Virus record (IMG/VR): IMGVR_UViG_3300012232_000019
Span: 1-48,151 of that record
Direction: 5' to 3' (one strand)
Source of the DNA: a virus
Lineage: Duplodnaviria; Caudoviricetes
DNA: 48,151 nt
Shown: positions 7,187-23,903 of the stretch, piece by piece
Numbering within the stretch: the stretch's first letter is position 1
Layout: each line of letters begins with the position of its first letter
Program-made: the position numbers and the translations under genes
Notes under the pieces: generated by a model
Told to the model about the DNA's origin: nothing
Databases searched by the model: none
What the model saw: the letters and a program-made list of their open reading frames with translations, nothing else

Positions 7187-8482
7187 ATGCAGATACCTGT
7201 AGAGCGTATTACGAACAACATCTCAGTGTCGTGGGAAAGCGACAAGGAACGTGACGAGTTCCTCGAATCGCTCCGTGAGCAGGGCCAGCTCCACGCCATT
7301 ATTGTTCGTCCGCTGAACAATATCTTGGATGGCTACGAGGTGGTCACCGGGGCCAAGAGATACGAAGCAGCCAAGCTACTCGGCTGGACCGAGATGGACG
7401 CTGAGGTCAAGGAACCGAACGACGTCGACGCCAAGATTATGAGGGTTCACGAAAACCTCCACAGACATAATCTTCCCTGGTATGAAGCTGTCGTGCTAGT
7501 TCAGCAGTTGCACGAGCTTCGTCAGCAGCAGCATGGCAAGAAGGAAGGCGTCGGACGTCCGAAGAAGGATGAGAAGGTGTGGGGCGTTCGAGAAACGGCT
7601 TCGGAGCTGAGCCTCTCCATCGGCGGGGTCAGCGAGGACTTGAGCCTTGCTCGGGCGGTGCAATACGACCCATCCCTCAAGAACATCAAGGACCGCAAGA
7701 CAGCTATCAAGCTCGTCCGTTCCGCGGCGCGTCGGATGCAGAACGAGACGATGGCAGCGATGACGGACATCGAAGTTGGCTTCAACGAGGTTTACCTCGG
7801 GGACAGCGCGGAGGTCCTGAGCCACTTCCCCGATGAGACATTCGATGTCTGCATCACCGACCCACCGTGGTTGAACTTCTTCGACCCCAGCTTGACGGTG
7901 GACAAGCGAACCCTTCCAGTCTTCGAGCAGCTGTGGCGGGTTCTCAAGAGCGACGCTTTCCTGTTTGTAATCGTTTCGGTGGACGACTTCGTCTACTATG
8001 GTGGTTACGACTACCTCAACGATTCCGGCCAGAAAGTCCACCGGCTCGGCGCGCTGGAGAAGCTCGGATTCAAGATTGCCAAGACACCTGTCTTCTGGCA
8101 GAAGCAGAACAGCCTCTCTCGACGCGGCGTCAAAACCTGGGAGTATGACCGTGACTTCGAGTTCGTTCTGGTTGCGGCGAAGGGTTCTCCAGTTCTTGCT
8201 CGGACTGGTAACATCTCGGCTTTCAAACCTTTCCCGCAGGTGCCCCCCGCGCACCTCATCCACCCCAACGAGAAGCCCATCGGACTCATCACCGACCTTC
8301 TCGAAGATTGCTGCTTCAAAGGAAGCATTGTCGTCGACCCATTCGGAGGTAGTGGTGTCACTGCTGCTGCCTGTGCGCTATCCGAAAGACGTTATGTGGC
8401 TATCGAGCGAGACAAACAATTCTACGACGGAATCGTAGGACGGCTCGCCAAGATCAAGGAAGCGAAGGAGAAGGTGTCGTGA
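7187..8482 (+). CDS. ParB-like N-terminal domain fused to an N4/N6 DNA methyltransferase (beta class)
   Basis: ParB-type LREQGQLHAIIVR...VVTGAKRYEA...ENLHR. MTase motif IV ITDPPW comes before HPNEKP and motif I VVDPFGGSG. Confidence 0.88.
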   Translation: MQIPVERITNNISVSWESDKERDEFLESLREQGQLHAIIVRPLNNILDGYEVVTGAKRYEAAKLLGWTEMDAEVKEPNDVDAKIMRVHENLHRHNLPWYEAVVLVQQLHELRQQQHGKKEGVGRPKKDEKVWGVRETASELSLSIGGVSEDLSLARAVQYDPSLKNIKDRKTAIKLVRSAARRMQNETMAAMTDIEVGFNEVYLGDSAEVLSHFPDETFDVCITDPPWLNFFDPSLTVDKRTLPVFEQLWRVLKSDAFLFVIVSVDDFVYYGGYDYLNDSGQKVHRLGALEKLGFKIAKTPVFWQKQNSLSRRGVKTWEYDRDFEFVLVAAKGSPVLARTGNISAFKPFPQVPPAHLIHPNEKPIGLITDLLEDCCFKGSIVVDPFGGSGVTAAACALSERRYVAIERDKQFYDGIVGRLAKIKEAKEKVS

Positions 8483-16669: not shown

Positions 16670-17806
16670 CTACTCCCTCCCTCCACCGTATCGACCTGTG
16701 CCGCCTCTACGGTTGTTCTGTGACGGCCCGAAGTTCGGGAGGCTTGGCGGATTCGGGTTGTAGGTGCCTCCGAAGTTCATCGGTCCACCTCCGCCACCAC
16801 TGAGACGCCCTTGAGTTCGAGCGCTGACTCGCTTCTCGACTTCAGCCTGAATCGTCGCGCGAGTGTTCGGGTCTACGCCGCGACCGATCTGCCACTGGTC
16901 AGCGTCGGCGTCGTATTCGATGGTGTGCGGTGGATAGTCCTTTGCCATCGAACCGAGGGCATCCTTCTCGGCCCTGTAGACATCACTAGCAGACACGGTG
17001 TCAGTCTTGTTCAGACCCATGTTGTCGAAGAAGGTCTGGTCCGCCCGACGCCCGATGAGCGAGTCGGTATCGCGGCGATTGGTTTCCGCGTTGTAGCGTC
17101 CGAGGCCAAGCTGTCCGCCTCGGTATTGATTGAGCGAGTTGGCTTTGAAGACGTCGAGCTTGTAGTCTCGATCGCCACTCGTCTTGTCGTAGCCGAACTT
17201 GTCCTCGTTCAGCTTGAGCTGGCCTTGGTCGACCTTTAGCTTGCCCGTCGCAATCAGGTAGTCTTGGTCATCTTTGTTCAGATTGCGAACATAGTCCATG
17301 TAGTCTTGTCTGGACTTCTGAGCGTCGATGACAGCCTTATAGCGGTCCTGCTGACTCTCTCGCTCGATGCCGGCCGCTTCCTTGAGAGGCCCTGCCTGAG
17401 CATAGTAGTTTTTCAGGGCATTGTCATACTTCGACCTGTTCATGCCCATTGCAGTCTCGACACCTTTGGCTGGGTCGCGATACCCAACCGAGGCACCAGC
17501 AAGGCCGGATGCTATACGCTCCAGCCAATTCGGTTTGTAGTCCGCCGCTTGAGGCGACGTCTTCAGGTAGCTCCTGTATTCGTCCAGTGCAGGAGTCCTC
17601 CCGTAGGCCCCACGGAGACTATCCATGAAGCCTGACATCGGGTCCCGACGAGGCTCTGCCTGACTAGCTTGCTGCCGCCAGCTGTCCAGCGAACCTCCAC
17701 CGTAGTCGTCCTGAGCACCGAAGTTGATGGAGCCGAAGCCTTCCTCCTCTACCCTGCTACGACGCTGGGGAAAGAAGGAGTCCTGTTCATAGTATTGTCC
17801 AGGCAT
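16670..17806 (-). CDS. putative internal virion protein
   Basis: Position among the ejection-type genes; Gly/Gln-rich helical protein coupled to its neighbours. Confidence 0.55.
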   Translation of the reverse strand: MPGQYYEQDSFFPQRRSRVEEEGFGSINFGAQDDYGGGSLDSWRQQASQAEPRRDPMSGFMDSLRGAYGRTPALDEYRSYLKTSPQAADYKPNWLERIASGLAGASVGYRDPAKGVETAMGMNRSKYDNALKNYYAQAGPLKEAAGIERESQQDRYKAVIDAQKSRQDYMDYVRNLNKDDQDYLIATGKLKVDQGQLKLNEDKFGYDKTSGDRDYKLDVFKANSLNQYRGGQLGLGRYNAETNRRDTDSLIGRRADQTFFDNMGLNKTDTVSASDVYRAEKDALGSMAKDYPPHTIEYDADADQWQIGRGVDPNTRATIQAEVEKRVSARTQGRLSGGGGGPMNFGGTYNPNPPSLPNFGPSQNNRRGGTGRYGGGRE

Positions 17807-19238
17807 TATTTGCTCCCGAAGTAGGTGCCCATGTTGTTCCAGCCCTGTTGGCCTGAGACACCACCCAGAGCACCAGTGGCAGCCTTAGCGCCCATACCCA
17901 TCGCCCCGAGGCCGGTCATGCCGCCTGCAACCATACCAGCGACTCCGCTGATATTCTGCAGGGCGCTGCTATACGGGTTGTTCTGCATGTGCTGTTGAGC
18001 AGACTGACCCTGCTCGTTCATGCTCATGCCACGATTGCCCAGCAGAGCTTGATTCCACATGTTGACTTCGCCTGGGGTCGAGCGGTAGAGGTCCGCCATC
18101 CCACCACCGGCATCCATCGTGTTGCCCGACTCGAAGTTCGCAAGCCACTGGAGGCCGCGAGTCTGGTCTGCTTGCGACGCCGCGCCACGTGCCGCCGCTG
18201 CGTTGGCTGCTGCCTGCTCGGAATCGGCAACACCCTTGAGGCCCGAAGTTCCGTAGAACCGGCCCTGCTGGATGAGGCCACCGAGGCCAAGTTCGCCCTG
18301 AGTCCAGCCCTGTGAGGCAGCAGTGCGATTCTGGGCGATGCTGTTGAGCATGTTGCCACGAGTGTCGCCAGCGCCCCTCAGGCCGGAGAGCATGTTGCCA
18401 GTGCGAAGTGACTGGAGCGCGCCCTCAGCTTGGGCACCACCCTCAGCACCCCACTGCTGACCCTGCCGCACTCTGTCGGACAGGCCCAGCTCGGTGTCGA
18501 GAGTCTGCTCGCGCATCCCCTTGGCCTGCTCACGAGCCAGCCGAGCACCCATCGCCGCCGATGCAGCGGGATTGCCTCCCTGAATGCTCGCCATACGATT
18601 CTGCCCTTGTCGGACGGTATCGTAGAAGGCTGGCAGAGTGCTGTTGGCGCGCGCTCGGATGTCGCCGAGTTGCTCCGGTGTGTAGCCGCCTGTCTTCTGA
18701 TAATCCTCGAAGACTCCGCCGCCACGCATCCGATTCATGTCTTCGGCGGAGAGGCCACCCGTCTTGCCCATCTCCTCGAACTGTGCGATAACGGCATCCT
18801 GCTTCGCACGGTCAGCTGGAGACCAGCCACCGGAGCCTGCGATGTCCCGCATCCCGGCCATTGCCGCACGGATGGGTCCAGCATCGACTCCACCTGTCTG
18901 ACTGGCGAACTCGTTGTAGAGGCCCTTCACCTGGCCGTAGGGGTTCGCAGCAGCACCGCCGCCACCACCCCACCACCTCCACTGCCGCTGCCTCCCGGAC
19001 CCACCCCGATGGAGTTCAGGTATGCAGTGCGCATGTTGGGGTCGATCCAGCCGGCACCCTGACCAACCCTGTTGAAGTTGTCAAAGGCCGCCTGCTGGAT
19101 GTTGTTCGCAGCATTCACAGCGCCCTGTTGCTGTGGCTGTGCGATAGCATTGAAAGCGTCTGAGCCCTTTCGAGCCCAGCTGCTCTGCTCCTGAATCATC
19201 TTGTTCGTTTGGGCTTTTTCCTTGCCACCACTCGACAT
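17806..19238 (-). CDS. putative pilot/ejection protein, split by a -1 frameshift into ORFs 18927..19238 and 17806..18930
   Basis: The poly-Gly codon run switches frame at 18968-18971. Both halves are Gly/Ala/Gln/Met-rich. Confidence 0.6.
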
Positions 19239-19247
19239 GTCACTCTC

Positions 19248-19388
19248 CTACTTGATCGGCAGTGCGGAAACGAGGAATGCAACAATCACGAACAGAAGCG
19301 CAATCCAGAGCGGGACTGTGGGCTTGAGAACGTGAGCAAGAAGTGCGAAGATCGCGCAGAGAAGCAGGAGGACTGTTATGGTAATCAT
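19248..19388 (-). CDS. 46-aa two-TM membrane protein (holin-like candidate)
   Basis: MITITVLLLLCAIFALLAHVLKPTVPLWIALLFVIVAFLVSALPIK; GAGG RBS; start overlaps the upstream stop. Confidence 0.6.
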   Translation of the reverse strand: MITITVLLLLCAIFALLAHVLKPTVPLWIALLFVIVAFLVSALPIK

Positions 19389-19876
19389 CACTCTACCTCT
19401 TTGATCAGATGCTCACCGAGAACATCCCAAAATCCGTAGTGTTTTCGAAGCACGTCGGCGAAGTCCGGGTCCTGGGTGCAGGCGTGTATCTGGTGTATGC
19501 CCACACGTTGCGCGCCCATGATTGCTACGGGCATTATCTCCTTGAAGGCGCGCGCTCGTTCCAGCTTTGACCTGTCATGGTCCATTACCATGTAAGTCTC
19601 AGCGAATATCTTCAGGTTGCCAAAGGCAATCATGCCCTTGTCATCTTCGACAACGCAGGTGATGATTGACGGTTCCAACTGCGGCAACGAGAATTGGTGC
19701 GAGTGATGCTTCTTCCAAAGCTCGTTAATCTTCGCCAGGTCGCGTGGAGTGTATCGTCTGACTACCAGTCCACTCTCTGAGCTGAGTTCGCCCCTATCAA
19801 GATGTCCGGTGTTTGCCCGATTGCTTTCCATCCGTCCATCTCCCCGTAAGAGTAGAAGACCGTCGCCTTCGTCCAC
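19388..19876 (-). CDS. GNAT-like protein (start uncertain, probably near 19770)
   Basis: VRRYTPRDL...CVVEDDKGMIAFG...LRKHYGF is a GNAT-like pattern. Podoviruses often have such a gene just before the ejection genes. Confidence 0.5.
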   Translation of the reverse strand: MDEGDGLLLLRGDGRMESNRANTGHLDRGELSSESGLVVRRYTPRDLAKINELWKKHHSHQFSLPQLEPSIITCVVEDDKGMIAFGNLKIFAETYMVMDHDRSKLERARAFKEIMPVAIMGAQRVGIHQIHACTQDPDFADVLRKHYGFWDVLGEHLIKEVE

Positions 19877-21096
19877 GCCTTGATGCGGTCCAGAAGCTGT
19901 CGCGTATTCGGTGCCTCTAAGAACCGTTGCACAGAGATGAAAGCCACGTCGTATTTCCTGTCGAAAACACGAGGGTCGAATATGTTCATGCAGCGAACAT
20001 TTGCGACCTTCTGTGCCTTCTTGAAGGCTTCGTCGTTGACCTCTACACCATGCAGCTCGGAAGCGATTCCCTTGTAAATCTTCAGCAGCTCACCAGTCCC
20101 GCACCCGAGGTCGATTACGGATTGGCCGCGGCAGTCTTGGGCGGCTGCAACCACGAGATTGTGGGCTGCGACCATTGCCTCGTAAGTGCTAAAGCCATTC
20201 AGAGTCCACGTATCCTTCGTCAGGAACTTGACCTTCTTCGTGTTGTTCCTGAAGGGGAACTCGTTGCCACGTGCGCCCTCGTCAGGATACAGCGAACCCT
20301 GTTGGAGAATGGTATTCTTGGTGTAGGTCGCGTCAGTGCGGCTAATGATGCGGCACACCGGCGTCACTATCTCCACGATACCATGTAGGCCCGTCCACTT
20401 CACAGGCCATTGTAGGGCCTCACTAAGGGTTCGATACTGCTCAAAGTAGTTGTTCCGGATGAGTTGCGTGGCTTCTGCAACGTAGGCTCTTGTCGCTTCA
20501 CACTTGAAGCTGCAAGGCAAATGAGACACCCAGCGAAGGCCGAGATGGCGCAGAGTGACATTGCAAGCAGGGTCAGGTGTGACAGTAATAACATCGGCGT
20601 CCGGGTCCGTAGCCGTGCTTAGAGCTTGTTCCCAAGTGGTGTCGATTAGTCCTTTTGCCACCCACGTATTTTGGAAGAATCGACGACAGCATTCAGGATA
20701 TCCCAGGAGGACACCGATTTCTTCGTCGTCGCTAACTTGCCAAGCAGCGAGCCACATGGTCGCAACGGCAGCTTTGCAGACGGCGACACGGTAGTCGAAC
20801 GGGGCACCTTCGATGTAGGCCGAGGTGGATGACGCATAATTGCTCGGCCCCCTGCCCTGCTGTGCCAAAGTAATAGCGACAAGCCCGTGGGTGCTGGCCC
20901 GGCGAGACACCTCGGCCATCCGTTCAGGAGGGACAACGAGCAATGCTCCAGCCTTAAAACCAGCACCCACGAGGTCGATTTCAATATCCTGCCACGAAGC
21001 CGATACCTGCCTGAAACGTGGTTCCCAGACGTTGCGAGCCTGTGGTGCCCACTGCATCCGAGTAAAATCTTCGAGTCTGAACGGTGCCGTTTCCAT
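19762..21096 (-). CDS. two-domain protein: Cys-motif N-terminal domain (LLGYPECC, DUF483-like) plus C-terminal class I SAM-dependent methyltransferase
   Basis: VIDLGCGTGEL...LHGVEVN is a SAM-binding motif. The N-terminal part has LLGYPECC and HLPCSFKC. Confidence 0.75.
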   Translation of the reverse strand: METAPFRLEDFTRMQWAPQARNVWEPRFRQVSASWQDIEIDLVGAGFKAGALLVVPPERMAEVSRRASTHGLVAITLAQQGRGPSNYASSTSAYIEGAPFDYRVAVCKAAVATMWLAAWQVSDDEEIGVLLGYPECCRRFFQNTWVAKGLIDTTWEQALSTATDPDADVITVTPDPACNVTLRHLGLRWVSHLPCSFKCEATRAYVAEATQLIRNNYFEQYRTLSEALQWPVKWTGLHGIVEIVTPVCRIISRTDATYTKNTILQQGSLYPDEGARGNEFPFRNNTKKVKFLTKDTWTLNGFSTYEAMVAAHNLVVAAAQDCRGQSVIDLGCGTGELLKIYKGIASELHGVEVNDEAFKKAQKVANVRCMNIFDPRVFDRKYDVAFISVQRFLEAPNTRQLLDRIKAWTKATVFYSYGEMDGWKAIGQTPDILIGANSAQRVDW

Positions 21097-22289
21097 TACC
21101 TTCTTACCTCCGCAAACGCTTGCACACGAGCGTCAGTATGATCACCATGAGCATCTCCATGAGGGGCATCATTGTGAGCTGTTGCCGACCTGTTACCAGC
21201 CAGATACGCACGCTCCCACTGCTCTCGGTCAGGATGCAGTGACGCAGGAACCTCCCCGAGCTCTAACATCAGATTCTCGTAATGCTCGAAGATAGCCATG
21301 ATAACCTCGCAATGCTCCGTTCGATTGCGGAAGTCACCGTCAAGACCAGTTCCGGGACACTCGCCCTTGCACATGAGGAAGAAGCGGCACCCCTTGCAGC
21401 CACCATGAGCATACGGAGTATGGTAGAGGGCATGCTGACGCTCGATTCCGCCCGTATCAGCCTTGCCCCAATCCACACCCTGCTTGTTGGTGCGATTGCA
21501 ATTCGTCTTTTCGCCCTGCCCGTTGATGCCCTGCACCGCAGGAGTAGTCAATACGTCGCACGCATGCCAGATGCAATTTACACCCTCATTTGCGCGTCGT
21601 AGAAGGACTTGATATTCCCTGAAATTGCTAAACTTGAGGTGAGTGAACTGCCTCTCAAGGGACATGAGCTGCTTCATCCGGTCGATAAGGAGCGGCATAT
21701 CGACGCGTAACTTGGATGCTTTGACCCCGTCAACCTCTAAGTAGTGCAAATTCACCCACCTCAACCCAATCTTATCGAGTCGAAGAAACCATTCACAAAG
21801 CATCCGAAAGGCCTCCTCGTCGCAGTTGCCCTTCCAGAGCGTCGTGATGATTGAGACTCCGATTCCCTCGTGATGTAGACGTTCGATAATATCCGTTGTT
21901 CTCTTGGTTGATGCGCGAGTTTCTTCCTGAGTGCCTGACGAACGCGCATCTGAACATCTCTCCGGGCCGTCGCAAGAGATACCGATGTGTGTATTGTATC
22001 GCTTAAATAGAGCAATGTGCGCCTCCGTAATGAGCGTTCCGTTGGTCTGAGCACCCGTCTTTCCGTGACGTTCGAAGCCGTATTTGAGTGCCTGCTCGAT
22101 GCGCTTCATGGGCGCGAGGAAGGGTTCACCTCCGTGCAGAGAGAACTCTCCTTCCTTGTCCAGAGCGGCGCGCACCTTCTCCCAGTCCCATGGGACGTTG
22201 ACGTTCTTCGCGTCACGCATGGGATTCTCGTAGCAGTATACGCAACCGATGTTGCACGCTACGCCGGAGGGATTCAGCTCAACACTCAT
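21096..22289 (-). CDS. radical SAM enzyme with SPASM domain (peptide/protein maturase type)
   Basis: CNIGCVYC, HGGEP, QTNGTL, IGISCDGP. SPASM cysteines CIWHAC, CNR, CKGCRFFLMCKGECP, HC. C-terminal HxD tail. Confidence 0.93.
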   Translation of the reverse strand: MSVELNPSGVACNIGCVYCYENPMRDAKNVNVPWDWEKVRAALDKEGEFSLHGGEPFLAPMKRIEQALKYGFERHGKTGAQTNGTLITEAHIALFKRYNTHIGISCDGPERCSDARSSGTQEETRASTKRTTDIIERLHHEGIGVSIITTLWKGNCDEEAFRMLCEWFLRLDKIGLRWVNLHYLEVDGVKASKLRVDMPLLIDRMKQLMSLERQFTHLKFSNFREYQVLLRRANEGVNCIWHACDVLTTPAVQGINGQGEKTNCNRTNKQGVDWGKADTGGIERQHALYHTPYAHGGCKGCRFFLMCKGECPGTGLDGDFRNRTEHCEVIMAIFEHYENLMLELGEVPASLHPDREQWERAYLAGNRSATAHNDAPHGDAHGDHTDARVQAFAEVRR

Positions 22290-22546
22290 GCTGTCAGCCG
22301 GACGTTTGCGGTGCCGCCGTTGACTCGCAGGAAGCCAGCCGCCACGTCGACGCCTGTCTCCGAGAACGCTGCCCCGGTCGCGACGACGCTGTTCTTCGCG
22401 CCGGTCATGTCCGAGTTGTTGCTGATGTCGATAGAGGTCGCTGTTCCTGGAGTCACGAACAGTCGAGCCTTTCTTGCAGGCAGCGCGCGCGGCGTGTTGT
22501 CCACGATTGCGTGAATGACTCCGATGCTGAGAGAGTAAGTCGGCAT
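22286..22546 (-). CDS. small beta-rich hypothetical protein (86 aa)
   Basis: Lies between the HxD protein and the rSAM gene; its stop overlaps the rSAM ATG. Confidence 0.65.
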   Translation of the reverse strand: MPTYSLSIGVIHAIVDNTPRALPARKARLFVTPGTATSIDISNNSDMTGAKNSVVATGAAFSETGVDVAAGFLRVNGGTANVRLTA

Positions 22547-22554
22547 GTCAGCCC

Positions 22555-23439
22555 CTATTCTACGAATGTTGGATTCGTGACGATAGCCACGTCCTGATGG
22601 TCGTTGTGACCAGCGTCCTGATGCGTCACATCCTGAAATGCTACGTCAGAGTGTCCGGTATCGCCATGAGAGTCACGATGGTCATTGTGCGTGGAGTCGG
22701 TATGAGCGATGTCCTTGTGCAGAGTATCATCGTGGTCGTTGTCCGTGTGGTCTGAGTGCGCACGATCTGTATGCGCTACGTCACCATGTGCCTTGTCGTT
22801 GTGGATGTTGTCACCGTGGTCATCATGCCAATCGAAGTGGTAATAATAATCTCGGTGTCCAGCTATGTCGTAAAACGCGATTCCATCATGATGTGTATCT
22901 TCGTGCGGTGCGTCACCATGAGAATCGACGTGAGCCGTGTCTGTGTGCGTGTCGAGATGACTTGTGTCATCATGGTCATTATCTTGATGATCAATATGAG
23001 TGACATCACTGTGAGCAACATCACTATGAGTGTTATCTTGATGGTCCGAATGCGCCACATCAGAATGAGCCGAGTCTTGGTGGGCGATGTCCCCATGCGC
23101 ACCGTCAGAATGCGTATTGTCCTGATGGTCGGTATGCGCCACATCGCCGTGTCCCTGTCTATGTGCCTTGTCAGACCCAAGCCACGAGATGCGCTTCTGA
23201 TTGTCAATCCATACGCTACCAGCGACTCCTGTCGTCGTCTTGATGAGCGTGTTGGGAATTCGCCGCTCTGAGCTAAGCGCGTCGATGTAATGGAGGTAGT
23301 CAGTCTCCACCCACAACGAGCCTTGGAATCCATCCCCGGCACCAACGAGGTCACCAGCATACCTCCACTCCTGAAGGTCTGCGGTGACGAAGTGGAGGTA
23401 AGCCCCCTCCACCCACAAGCTACCAGGAACTTTAGCCAT
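22555..23439 (-). CDS. His-x-Asp repeat protein (candidate rSAM substrate, possibly virion-associated)
   Basis: The first ~95 aa carry three GS(L/V)W(V/I)(E/D) repeats, followed by ~39 HxD motifs in residues 97-283. Confidence 0.85.
   Translation of the reverse strand: MAKVPGSLWVEGAYLHFVTADLQEWRYAGDLVGAGDGFQGSLWVETDYLHYIDALSSERRIPNTLIKTTTGVAGSVWIDNQKRISWLGSDKAHRQGHGDVAHTDHQDNTHSDGAHGDIAHQDSAHSDVAHSDHQDNTHSDVAHSDVTHIDHQDNDHDDTSHLDTHTDTAHVDSHGDAPHEDTHHDGIAFYDIAGHRDYYYHFDWHDDHGDNIHNDKAHGDVAHTDRAHSDHTDNDHDDTLHKDIAHTDSTHNDHRDSHGDTGHSDVAFQDVTHQDAGHNDHQDVAIVTNPTFVE
22591..23151 (-). repeat. coding repeat array of HxD tripeptides, spaced 3-6 aa apart (mostly 3-5)
   Basis: e.g. HGDVAHTDHQDNTHSDGAHGDIAHQDSAHSD. 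The codons are diverged, so the repeat is conserved at the protein level. Confidence 0.9.
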
Positions 23440-23903
23440 TACGCAGTTACGAACTTGTCAACACCAACTGGAATGACAATGCCGTTACGAATGTAGACCG
23501 TGCCGGGCCTGTTCGCGTTGGTTCCGATGTTGAGCGTTCCGTCAGCAGCAAACACGATTGGACCGCTCATGCTCAGGGAGGTTATCCCCGAGATAACTCC
23601 ACCAGTGATGACGACGGCATTGGAGTTCTGTTGTGCCATCGTGCCGAGATTCAGGTTGCCCAGAATGCCTGCAGGCGTGCTTGCTCCCGTCCCGCCACCA
23701 GCGATGGAGATGACCTTGTTCTGCCACGCCGCACCATCCCACTCCTGGAGTAGATTGGTTGCGCGATGGTATCTCATCGAGCCGACTGGCGGACTCACAG
23801 GGTCCGTGACGAACATCTGCGCTGCATCATTCAAGCGGCCATCGACCTCGGCCACGAAATTGATGTAGTCGCTGGTAATCGTCGGTTTCAGCCAGTCAGC
23901 CAT
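23439..23903 (-). CDS. short tail-fibre-like structural protein
   Basis: ISIAGGGTGAST...LNLGTMAQQNSNAVVITGGVISG resembles a fibre shaft motif. Confidence 0.6.
   Translation of the reverse strand: MADWLKPTITSDYINFVAEVDGRLNDAAQMFVTDPVSPPVGSMRYHRATNLLQEWDGAAWQNKVISIAGGGTGASTPAGILGNLNLGTMAQQNSNAVVITGGVISGITSLSMSGPIVFAADGTLNIGTNANRPGTVYIRNGIVIPVGVDKFVTA

Follow-up and report, generated by a model that had tools for sequence, protein, structure and literature searches.

What does a radical S-adenosylmethionine (SAM) enzyme do in the tail module of a tailed virus, next to a protein that carries 39 His-x-Asp (HxD) triplets? The question is raised by IMG/VR record IMGVR_UViG_3300012232_000019 (Duplodnaviria; Caudoviricetes), a 48,151-base virus record rated complete, which was analysed at its full length and is called the window below. 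Its minus strand encodes, from upstream to downstream, a 294-amino-acid (aa) HxD-repeat protein, an 86-aa protein, a radical SAM/SPASM enzyme, and a protein that joins a DUF483-like domain to a methyltransferase. The module is real and conserved, and it probably operates as triceptide systems do, but with a structural protein as its substrate. On balance, we think that the enzyme staples the array of a protein that caps the tip of a tail fibre. As to the parts of this reading, the array is very probably the target of the enzyme, and, given that it is, the formation of rings with a loss of 2 Da per motif is fairly likely. The features on which the reading is built are as follows.

22555-23439, minus strand: gene of the HxD-repeat protein, 294 aa, an open reading frame at exactly these positions.
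22591..23151, minus strand: array of 39 His-x-Asp motifs, residues 97-283, the predicted substrate (count against shuffles).
21096-22289, minus strand: gene of the radical SAM/SPASM enzyme, 397 aa, a predicted maturase (Pfam Radical_SAM, E 8.3e-14).
21132..21176, minus strand: four HxD motifs in the C-terminal tail of the enzyme, residues 372-386 (motif count).
23152..23439, minus strand: cap domain, residues 1-96 of the repeat protein, all-beta, with three GSxW repeats (alignment A2, AlphaFold2, complex model).
23439..23903, minus strand: gene of a 154-aa short fibre protein, a predicted trimer and docking partner (weak PHROG tail-fibre matches; complex model).
23442..23483, minus strand: docking motif at the C-terminus of the fibre protein (residues 141-154), with the core IPVGxDKF (upstream-gene motif count; predicted interface).

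Of the 43 His residues of the repeat protein, 39 start an HxD motif between residues 97 and 283, in line with the approximate count of the first-pass annotation; in 10,000 shuffles of the array region, the mean was 9.6 motifs and the maximum 21. The middle residue is freely variable, and the spacing is mostly 5, then 3 and 4. Searches of Pfam, NCBIfam, PHROG and PADLOC gave no match for the protein, and its whole-length Atlas model is poor (predicted local distance difference test, pLDDT, 0.47). In 88 pooled arrays with a total of 3,067 His, 85% of the His residues form HxD and 12% HxN, and Asp or Asn stands at +2 of His in 97%, as against 5–9% at +1, +3 and +4, a +2 figure which is inflated because the arrays were chosen for their density of aromatic-x-Asp/Asn motifs. 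Where Phe occupies the first position in register, Asp or Asn follows at +2 in 60%, compared with 10–17% at other offsets, and the array of locus L013 comprises 37 FxN and 6 HxD motifs. Proline occurs in the middle position of only 1 of 2,974 motifs, and the spacing across arrays is irregular (3, 4, 5, 7, 9), with a dominant period of 5.

As judged from these arrays, the constant of the motif appears to be an aromatic ring placed two residues ahead of a residue with a C-beta methylene, an alphabet that looks like that of triceptide cyclophane substrates and unlike a metal site. Triceptide enzymes link Phe-Asn, Tyr-Asp, His-Ala and His-Arg across positions i and i+2 (PMC11002830; this and the other papers cited here by PMC number were available in part), and MicB acts on YSK, HAS and FTK motifs (PMC12912966). 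His-to-Asp cross-linking would fit this alphabet. Since the Phe and Tyr variants, the fixed +2 position and the C-beta methylene match triceptide substrates, we infer a loss of 2 Da per ring. The metal-binding appendage suggested earlier is weakened, because Phe replaces His in register and a metal site would accept neither Phe nor Lys.

The pairing of enzyme and repeat protein, which had been proposed from the window, is strongly supported by its recurrence across loci. These were taken from scans of 29 of 64 and 9 of 64 collection parts (best 80 matches each), and the viral tally omits the duplicate contigs L002 and L003 but retains some near-identical ones. An aromatic-x-Asp/Asn array was present in 56 of 59 viral family loci and a DUF483-like partner in 54 of 59, whereas neither was seen near distant radical SAM controls from the same scans (0/21 viral and 0/49 genomic loci, 0/70 together). 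Genome loci, whose carriers include two archaeal records (L110, L112), had a dense array in 18 of 30 cases and the DUF483-like partner in 28 of 30. In 38 of 58 viral loci, the array gene ends no more than 70 nt from the start of the enzyme gene. The three viral loci without an array are L017 and two others, L011 and L014, in which the contig breaks off 1.4 and 0.4 kb ahead of the enzyme gene, respectively.

The enzyme contains the CxxxCxxC motif (C12, C16, C19) and eight further cysteines (239, 244, 264, 298, 301, 307, 311, 327) that are invariant in a 31-row alignment. In alignment, the segment C298-C311 coincides with the anSME SPASM motif, and the cysteine set is as for two auxiliary clusters, the binding of which is predicted. 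An N-terminal RRE extension is absent. The best NCBIfam profile was DynA (75.9 bits, cut-off 450), followed by AmcB (72.4/425) and anSME (71.2/349), with GrrM (50.4/310), YhhB (47.5/445), XyeB (32.4/450) and FxsB (31.8/370) further down; models of HxsB and HxsC were absent from the best 25 of 41 NCBIfam matches. Among sequences with a solved structure, anSME and the radical SAM domain of ChlB come closest. A protein search returned 1,340 relatives (E <= 1e-20), and in a quick tree of 55 rows, the 23 family rows group together in a single clade (SH-aLRT 100), separate from GrrM, FxsB, nif11-type and QhpD-type references; this tree holds one GrrM and one FxsB reference, both on long branches, and its deep forks are open. 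Since the scores lie far below the cut-offs and the family forms its own clade, the enzyme belongs to no named family, and by sequence it appears to represent an uncharacterised lineage on the side of anSME and the cyclophane enzymes, which lack an RRE. It is not a member of XyeB, GrrM or FxsB, the maturases to which the first-pass annotation had pointed, as it falls below the cut-offs of all three. Clustering with cofactor- or nucleotide-modifying radical SAM enzymes had been named at the outset as a finding that would speak against a peptide substrate; the nearest profiles are those of peptide and protein maturases, albeit with the family standing in a clade of its own.

The enzyme also carries the presumed substrate motif itself, with four HxD in its own C-terminal tail. 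Among the copies scored, a tail with at least two HxD is common in viruses (37 of 45) and rare in genomes (3 of 24), and 57 of 119 database relatives have at least two HxD-type tail motifs (up to 22 in L052), which may serve self-modification or regulation. In phages L050 (8508-10451) and L052 (9029-10390), a second radical SAM gene directly follows the first, and each of these phages has two cap-domain array genes. In the tree, six cellular copies of the enzyme (L083, L084, L089, L095, L101, L106) fall among the viral rows, at a fork with support 91 that is drawn open, and may have come from phages.

How the array could be held on the virion is suggested by the other part of the repeat protein. 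Residues 1-96 form a confidently predicted domain of strands only (AlphaFold2, pLDDT 93) with three GSxW repeats (alignment A2). Among 46 non-redundant cap genes, the gene upstream ends in [LIV]P[VILF]Gx[DNG] in 29 cases, and in two more the motif is fused (31/46). The carriers of this motif range from 97 to more than 1,400 residues and have little else in common; PHROG tail-fibre matches were found for those in L037, L052, L110 and L029. The motif terminates 40 of 4,532 six-frame open reading frames of at least 100 aa, all in family loci, a contrast that is weak because the motif was derived from the same upstream genes that were later counted and because the control loci are mostly non-tail modules.

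A complex of three copies of the last 70 residues of the fibre protein with one cap domain was modelled. The score was 0.95 in three runs, as compared to 0.00 for the best of three controls, with contacts agreeing to at least 97% and a partner pLDDT of at least 93. Of 157 solved complexes, 116 attained the 0.95 mark, as did 2 of 215 mismatched pairs; for a three-plus-one job with its own alignments, these counts apply only roughly. In the predicted interface, the C-terminal 14 residues of each of the three fibre chains face the three GSxW repeats, and W9, W43 and W77 are among the best-placed contacts. The model supports binding of one cap domain to the C-termini of a trimeric fibre, and display of the repeat protein on the virion, as envisaged by the first-pass annotation, gains a predicted docking mode (0.95 versus 0.00).

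The cap domain was found in 46 longer proteins, 33 with and 13 without an array, and three of the latter 13 contain LamG. Since it occurs without an array, including together with LamG, the cap looks like a general mount on which the array takes the place of lectin-like domains. Proteins P0152, P0166, P0168, P0172, P0173 and others combine the cap with LamG or other domains in the absence of an array, and Atlas clusters of 95-96 aa (scores 0.78, leads only) suggest that stand-alone forms exist. Arrays that lack the cap are instead joined to large proteins of the tail module, as in L009 (Pfam Phage-tail_3), L018 (LamG) and L020 (collagen). A role of the cap as leader peptide was rejected: arrays without a cap exist, and in 13 of 46 proteins there is a cap without an array. 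A Foldseek search with the cap gave no clear solved match (best E 0.06), and the best hit of a VIA search, the bacteriocin LlpA (Z 4.2, root mean square deviation 4.7, 91 residues aligned), is too weak to name a fold. No PDB sequence matched, and neither sequence nor fold searches returned a similar cap-fibre complex; among viral models the fold had one strong match, a 342-aa protein equal in length to phiMa_29 of Thermus phage phiMa.

According to the reading preferred here, the 294-aa protein would cap the end of the trimeric tail fibre as a single chain, each GSxW repeat gripping one of the three IPVGxDKF tails of the 154-aa protein. Before virion assembly, the radical SAM/SPASM enzyme would convert the HxD triplets to three-residue rings; by analogy with triceptide chemistry, it would abstract a hydrogen from the C-beta of the third residue and then bond this C-beta to the aromatic ring of the first, at a cost of 2 Da per motif. 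A disordered acidic chain would in this way become a stiff, protease-resistant segment, which, to go by its place at the position of a receptor-binding domain, probably functions in host attachment. The DUF483-like domain may be a metal-binding helper of the enzyme, and the methyltransferase may provide an optional tailoring step. More tentatively, and with some doubt as to the whole, we propose that a widespread class of tailed viruses of bacteria and archaea may have a host-contacting fibre tip in which an enzyme has installed dozens of aromatic cyclophane rings along one chain. Such a tip would be a monomeric adhesin, able to dock on whichever trimeric fibre ends in the IPVGxDK tag and functional only once stapled by the radical SAM enzyme of the phage.

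If this is true, phages use the cross-linking chemistry of natural products for a structural protein, and there is a new type of receptor-binding tip together with a portable fibre-cap docking pair. The enzyme would be leaderless in action and process about 40 to 90 motifs per chain, which could be of use for making rigid cyclic polymers; DUF483 would acquire a role, and a published Thermus module (see below) an alternative reading. A poly-cyclophane fibre tip would be very surprising to specialists.

A number of observations weigh against the stapled fibre tip. The enzyme is below the cut-off of every maturase family in NCBIfam, and in the quick tree the family does not group with the references for GrrM and FxsB. 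Upstream of 15 of 46 cap genes, the pattern search detected no docking motif, and nine fused forms with motif and cap in one chain are at odds with a simple 3:1 ratio. The density-based choice of the arrays, the derivation of the docking motif from the genes in which it was counted against mostly non-tail controls, and the near-identical contigs left in the viral tally, all mentioned above, belong here as well. The first-pass annotation had held that enzyme homologues without an HxD partner would speak against its proposal; viral loci mostly have an array, but in L017 none was seen within 4.2 kb upstream of the enzyme, and 12 of 30 genome loci are without a dense one. Among the latter, L084, L087, L093, L094 and L099 carry either a sparse array or just two to four motifs, L101 and L102 Lys variants, and L109 a Tyr-rich stretch, while L092 and L103 offer only a short or cut locus; no array motif is seen in L106 and L108, nor in the cyanobacterial L170. 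In L170 (4268-10677), the enzyme and its DUF483 partner are found with dpdK and dpdD within about 2–5 kb and a UvrD-type helicase nearby. A His-Asp link is not among the triceptide links in the available part of PMC11002830, and HxsA, the closest precedent of a His-x-X protein, gains 8 Da on one motif, read as +C/-4H, rather than losing 2 Da on each (PMC13128918).

Because of this gain in HxsA, the fibre-tip array could be modified by other chemistry, such as an imidazole N-C link, desaturation or epimerisation at Asp/Asn, or carbon addition with the help of the DUF483/methyltransferase partner. The position of the enzyme clade outside the characterised families is compatible with such a reaction, as are the near-constant cysteine-rich partner and the His N-to-C-beta link of dynobactin (PMC11002830), DynA being the best profile. 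We nevertheless consider it unlikely, though worth serious attention, as Phe, which has no ring nitrogen, replaces His in whole arrays such as that of L013, and as the fixed +2 position, the near-absence of middle Pro and the aromatic first residue match three-residue cyclophane substrates.

Alternatively, the repeat protein might be a peptide precursor that, after its modification, is either processed into small products or exported, without a role on the virion. Bacterial repeat peptides of 63-106 aa (L089, L090, L091, L096) and the twin-arginine-like leaders in L083, L097 and L084 are in keeping with such a fate, which may apply to the bacterial copies. For the phage protein it is improbable, since phage arrays are fused to the predicted fibre cap or to tail-module proteins, no protease or transporter family matched any of the four cassette genes, and the array lacks a regular cleavage spacer.

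His and Asp are common metal ligands, and this chemistry, together with the dominant period-5 spacing, would suit an array that acts unmodified as a metal-binding or self-folding repeat of the fibre tip, the enzyme having another substrate. We give this little credence in view of the Phe-x-Asn and aromatic-x-Lys variants, the irregularity of the spacing and the poor Atlas model; it also leaves the co-occurrence of array and enzyme in 56 of 59 viral loci and the motifs in the enzyme tail unexplained.

A fourth explanation has been published for relatives of the module. In a search of 50,697 phage records, the full enzyme was found in three, those of the Thermus phages phiMa, Cumys and phiLo, all of which have arrays (53 to 90 HxD) and infect Thermus thermophilus HB8; since these three phages are in culture, the question is directly testable. 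The gene trio of Cumys and phiMa has been described as an "rSAM module" with an unknown third gene, a role in DNA modification was proposed, and cyanobacterial homologues were noted near deazapurine genes; the passage on the module is silent on repeats, and the word "histidine" has no occurrence in the main text (PMC11437467, in the part available). The "unknown" gene (Cumys_13, phiMa_29) encodes 53-54 HxD motifs and a cap domain, and the Cumys array is located beside baseplate and collar-fibre genes. By sequence identity, the window holds a module homologous to that of the Thermus phages (radical SAM enzyme 43%, DUF483 protein 29-30%, upstream cap-domain protein 42-43%), the difference being that the Thermus partner has no methyltransferase domain. 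A role of the enzyme and its DUF483 partner in defence or in the modification of phage DNA, a proposal whose published genomic context the array-free L170 with its dpdK/dpdD neighbours reproduces, is very improbable, as the phage genes are coupled to an array gene within a tail module, the published third gene is itself a cap-array gene, the nearest relatives are peptide and protein maturases, and in cyanobacterial L084 no dpd match was found among six Pfam-scanned neighbours and the upstream gene ends in HxD. In phiLo (L164:13807-17121), two array proteins with 72 and at least 90 HxD, neither with a cap domain, are encoded at a distance of 4.4 kb from the enzyme and on the other strand.

The claim that no such phage system had been described therefore needs amendment: the trio is in print, with a proposed role, DNA modification, other than the one put forward here. 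No paper describing radical SAM modification of virion or fibre proteins by phages was found in a search that left subscription journals largely outside. The triceptide synthases (XncB/XyeB, OscB/GrrM, MscB/FxsB, YxdB, HaaB, YhhB, ChlB, MicB) share with the window enzyme the RRE-less SPASM architecture, aromatic-x-X motifs with i/i+2 links, and several motifs per substrate, FxN and YxD being known substrate motifs. They differ in that the window enzyme reaches only 32–72 bits against their cut-offs of 310–450 and has an additional DUF483-like partner. Their substrates, as far as the available sources go, are short precursors with few motifs and a leader, released by proteolysis; the window has a structural protein with about 40 motifs and a folded cap, and no protease match among its four genes.

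The HXS system (PMC13128918) likewise uses radical SAM enzymes to mature a His-x-X repeat protein that acts at the interface of phage entry. It is a bacterial, periplasmic defence system with two radical SAM enzymes (HxsB, HxsC), HxsD and five basic His-x-Ser repeats, and its effector has a peptidoglycan-binding domain, while the window system is phage-encoded, has one radical SAM enzyme and 39 acidic His-x-Asp motifs, is predicted to reside on the virion, and has a repeat protein without Pfam, NCBIfam or PADLOC match. CrpC and CrpA of Methanococcus voltae provide a case in which a SPASM radical SAM enzyme cross-links the product of an adjacent gene, a substrate of protein size, at several places, but the links are thioethers on cysteines, the enzyme bears an RRE and the system is cellular (PMC13692751). 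The proposed cap arrangement has a counterpart in S16 gp37(3)-gp38, in which a homotrimeric fibre is capped by a monomer whose three tryptophans occupy three equivalent sites, and in which the same monomer has, past its attachment domain, a repeat domain of an unusual kind (PMC6851490). The attachment domain of gp38 is helical and its repeats are a polyglycine sandwich, in contrast to the all-beta cap and HxD array of the window; the cap has no sequence or fold match to gp38, and the resemblance is best described as an architectural analogy rather than homology.

The remaining genes and domains of the cassette are the following.

22286-22546, minus strand: 86-aa accessory gene, found in close relatives only and not part of the core.
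19762-21096, minus strand: gene of the DUF483-like/methyltransferase protein, 444 aa (Pfam).
20242..21096, minus strand: DUF483-like domain with invariant C136, C137, H192, C195 and C199 (Pfam, alignment, co-occurrence).
19762..20223, minus strand: class I SAM methyltransferase domain, optional (Pfam, fold matches).

The N-terminal part of the 444-aa protein resembles DUF483 (Pfam E 5.8e-5; 23.5 bits, under the gathering cut-off of 25); among the members of its nearest Atlas clusters (score 0.88), 16–19% carry DUF483. The C-terminal part is a class I methyltransferase (Methyltransf_25, E 3.2e-7). Fold searches with the whole two-domain protein were filled by methyltransferases, with no protein isoaspartyl methyltransferase among the matches listed. 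The DUF483-like partner is fused to the enzyme in P0040, P0079, P0081, P0089, P0106 and P0120. To our knowledge, triceptide synthases need no cysteine-rich partner of this kind. The methyltransferase domain occurs in 48 of 59 viral and 6 of 30 genome loci and in none of the three cultured Thermus phages; the methyltransferase fusion recognised initially is thus real as to the domain, but the conserved partner is the DUF483-like domain. The 86-aa gene, previously counted as a part of the cassette, is clade-specific: all of its 7 homologues are 63–100% identical, it was found in L001-L005, L007 and L008 only among the fetched loci, and its product has no Pfam, NCBIfam or PHROG match. Its candidacy as an essential RRE-like partner was rejected on account of its absence from all distant loci.

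With respect to gene order, all four open reading frames and the junctions reported for them were confirmed: the HxD gene is followed after an 8-nt gap by the 86-aa gene, which overlaps the radical SAM gene by ATGA, and a TAATG overlap leads on to the last gene. A further TAATG overlap, at 23439, joins the 154-aa gene to the HxD gene; this docking partner, just outside the coordinates of the original four-gene outline, had been overlooked, as had the HxD motifs in the enzyme tail. The minus-strand block also holds a terminase, an SU10-type adaptor and a tail protein (Pfam, PHROG). As for the location of the cassette between tail and ejection genes, the tail side is borne out by a 505-aa gene matching phrog_1727 (tail, E 6.5e-13) and by weak tail-fibre PHROG matches of the 154-aa gene (E 0.002-0.009). 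On the other side, the presumed ejection genes gave zero Pfam or PHROG matches, so that this label is inferred from position and composition.

Several array genes elsewhere deserve mention. Large Bacteroidota proteins upstream of the enzyme (L101:4506-7004, L102:3841-6975) end in YxK and HxK repeats, a candidate for a natural switch in specificity. Phages L020, L024, L025, L027 and L030 each possess between two and four array genes, in which HxN and FxN abound; some of these arrays are on collagen-like fibres. Bacterial array proteins with twin-arginine-like leaders, as judged by eye (L083:9784-10206, L097:9829-10302, L084:6254-6835), one with a lipoprotein-like cysteine, are possibly exported modified proteins. 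In Bryobacterales, leaderless HxD peptides of 63-77 aa (L089:6764-6973, L090:6719-6952, L091:6761-6952) precede a radical SAM-DUF483 fusion. Samples of 401 genomes each around one cyanobacterial and one Bacteroidota carrier yielded two matches apiece, one of them the seed; the other match in the Bacteroidota sample is the same array gene as in L087 and adds nothing.

Downstream of the cassette, a small gene (19388-19765, minus strand) is conserved at 76–94% identity in relatives and lies between the cassette and the presumed ejection genes; it had no match in the Pfam and PHROG libraries, and its product is one that we take to resemble an acetyltransferase-fold head protein. A presumed ejection-protein gene (17806-19238, minus strand) is present in two frames (103 aa and 374 aa), with a G-rich stretch near 18940-19008, and corresponds to a single open reading frame of 463-479 aa in three relatives; the split is either an assembly error or a natural frameshift. 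In the replication block, a plus-strand gene (7187-8482) encodes a ParB-like domain fused to a DNA methyltransferase (PHROG).

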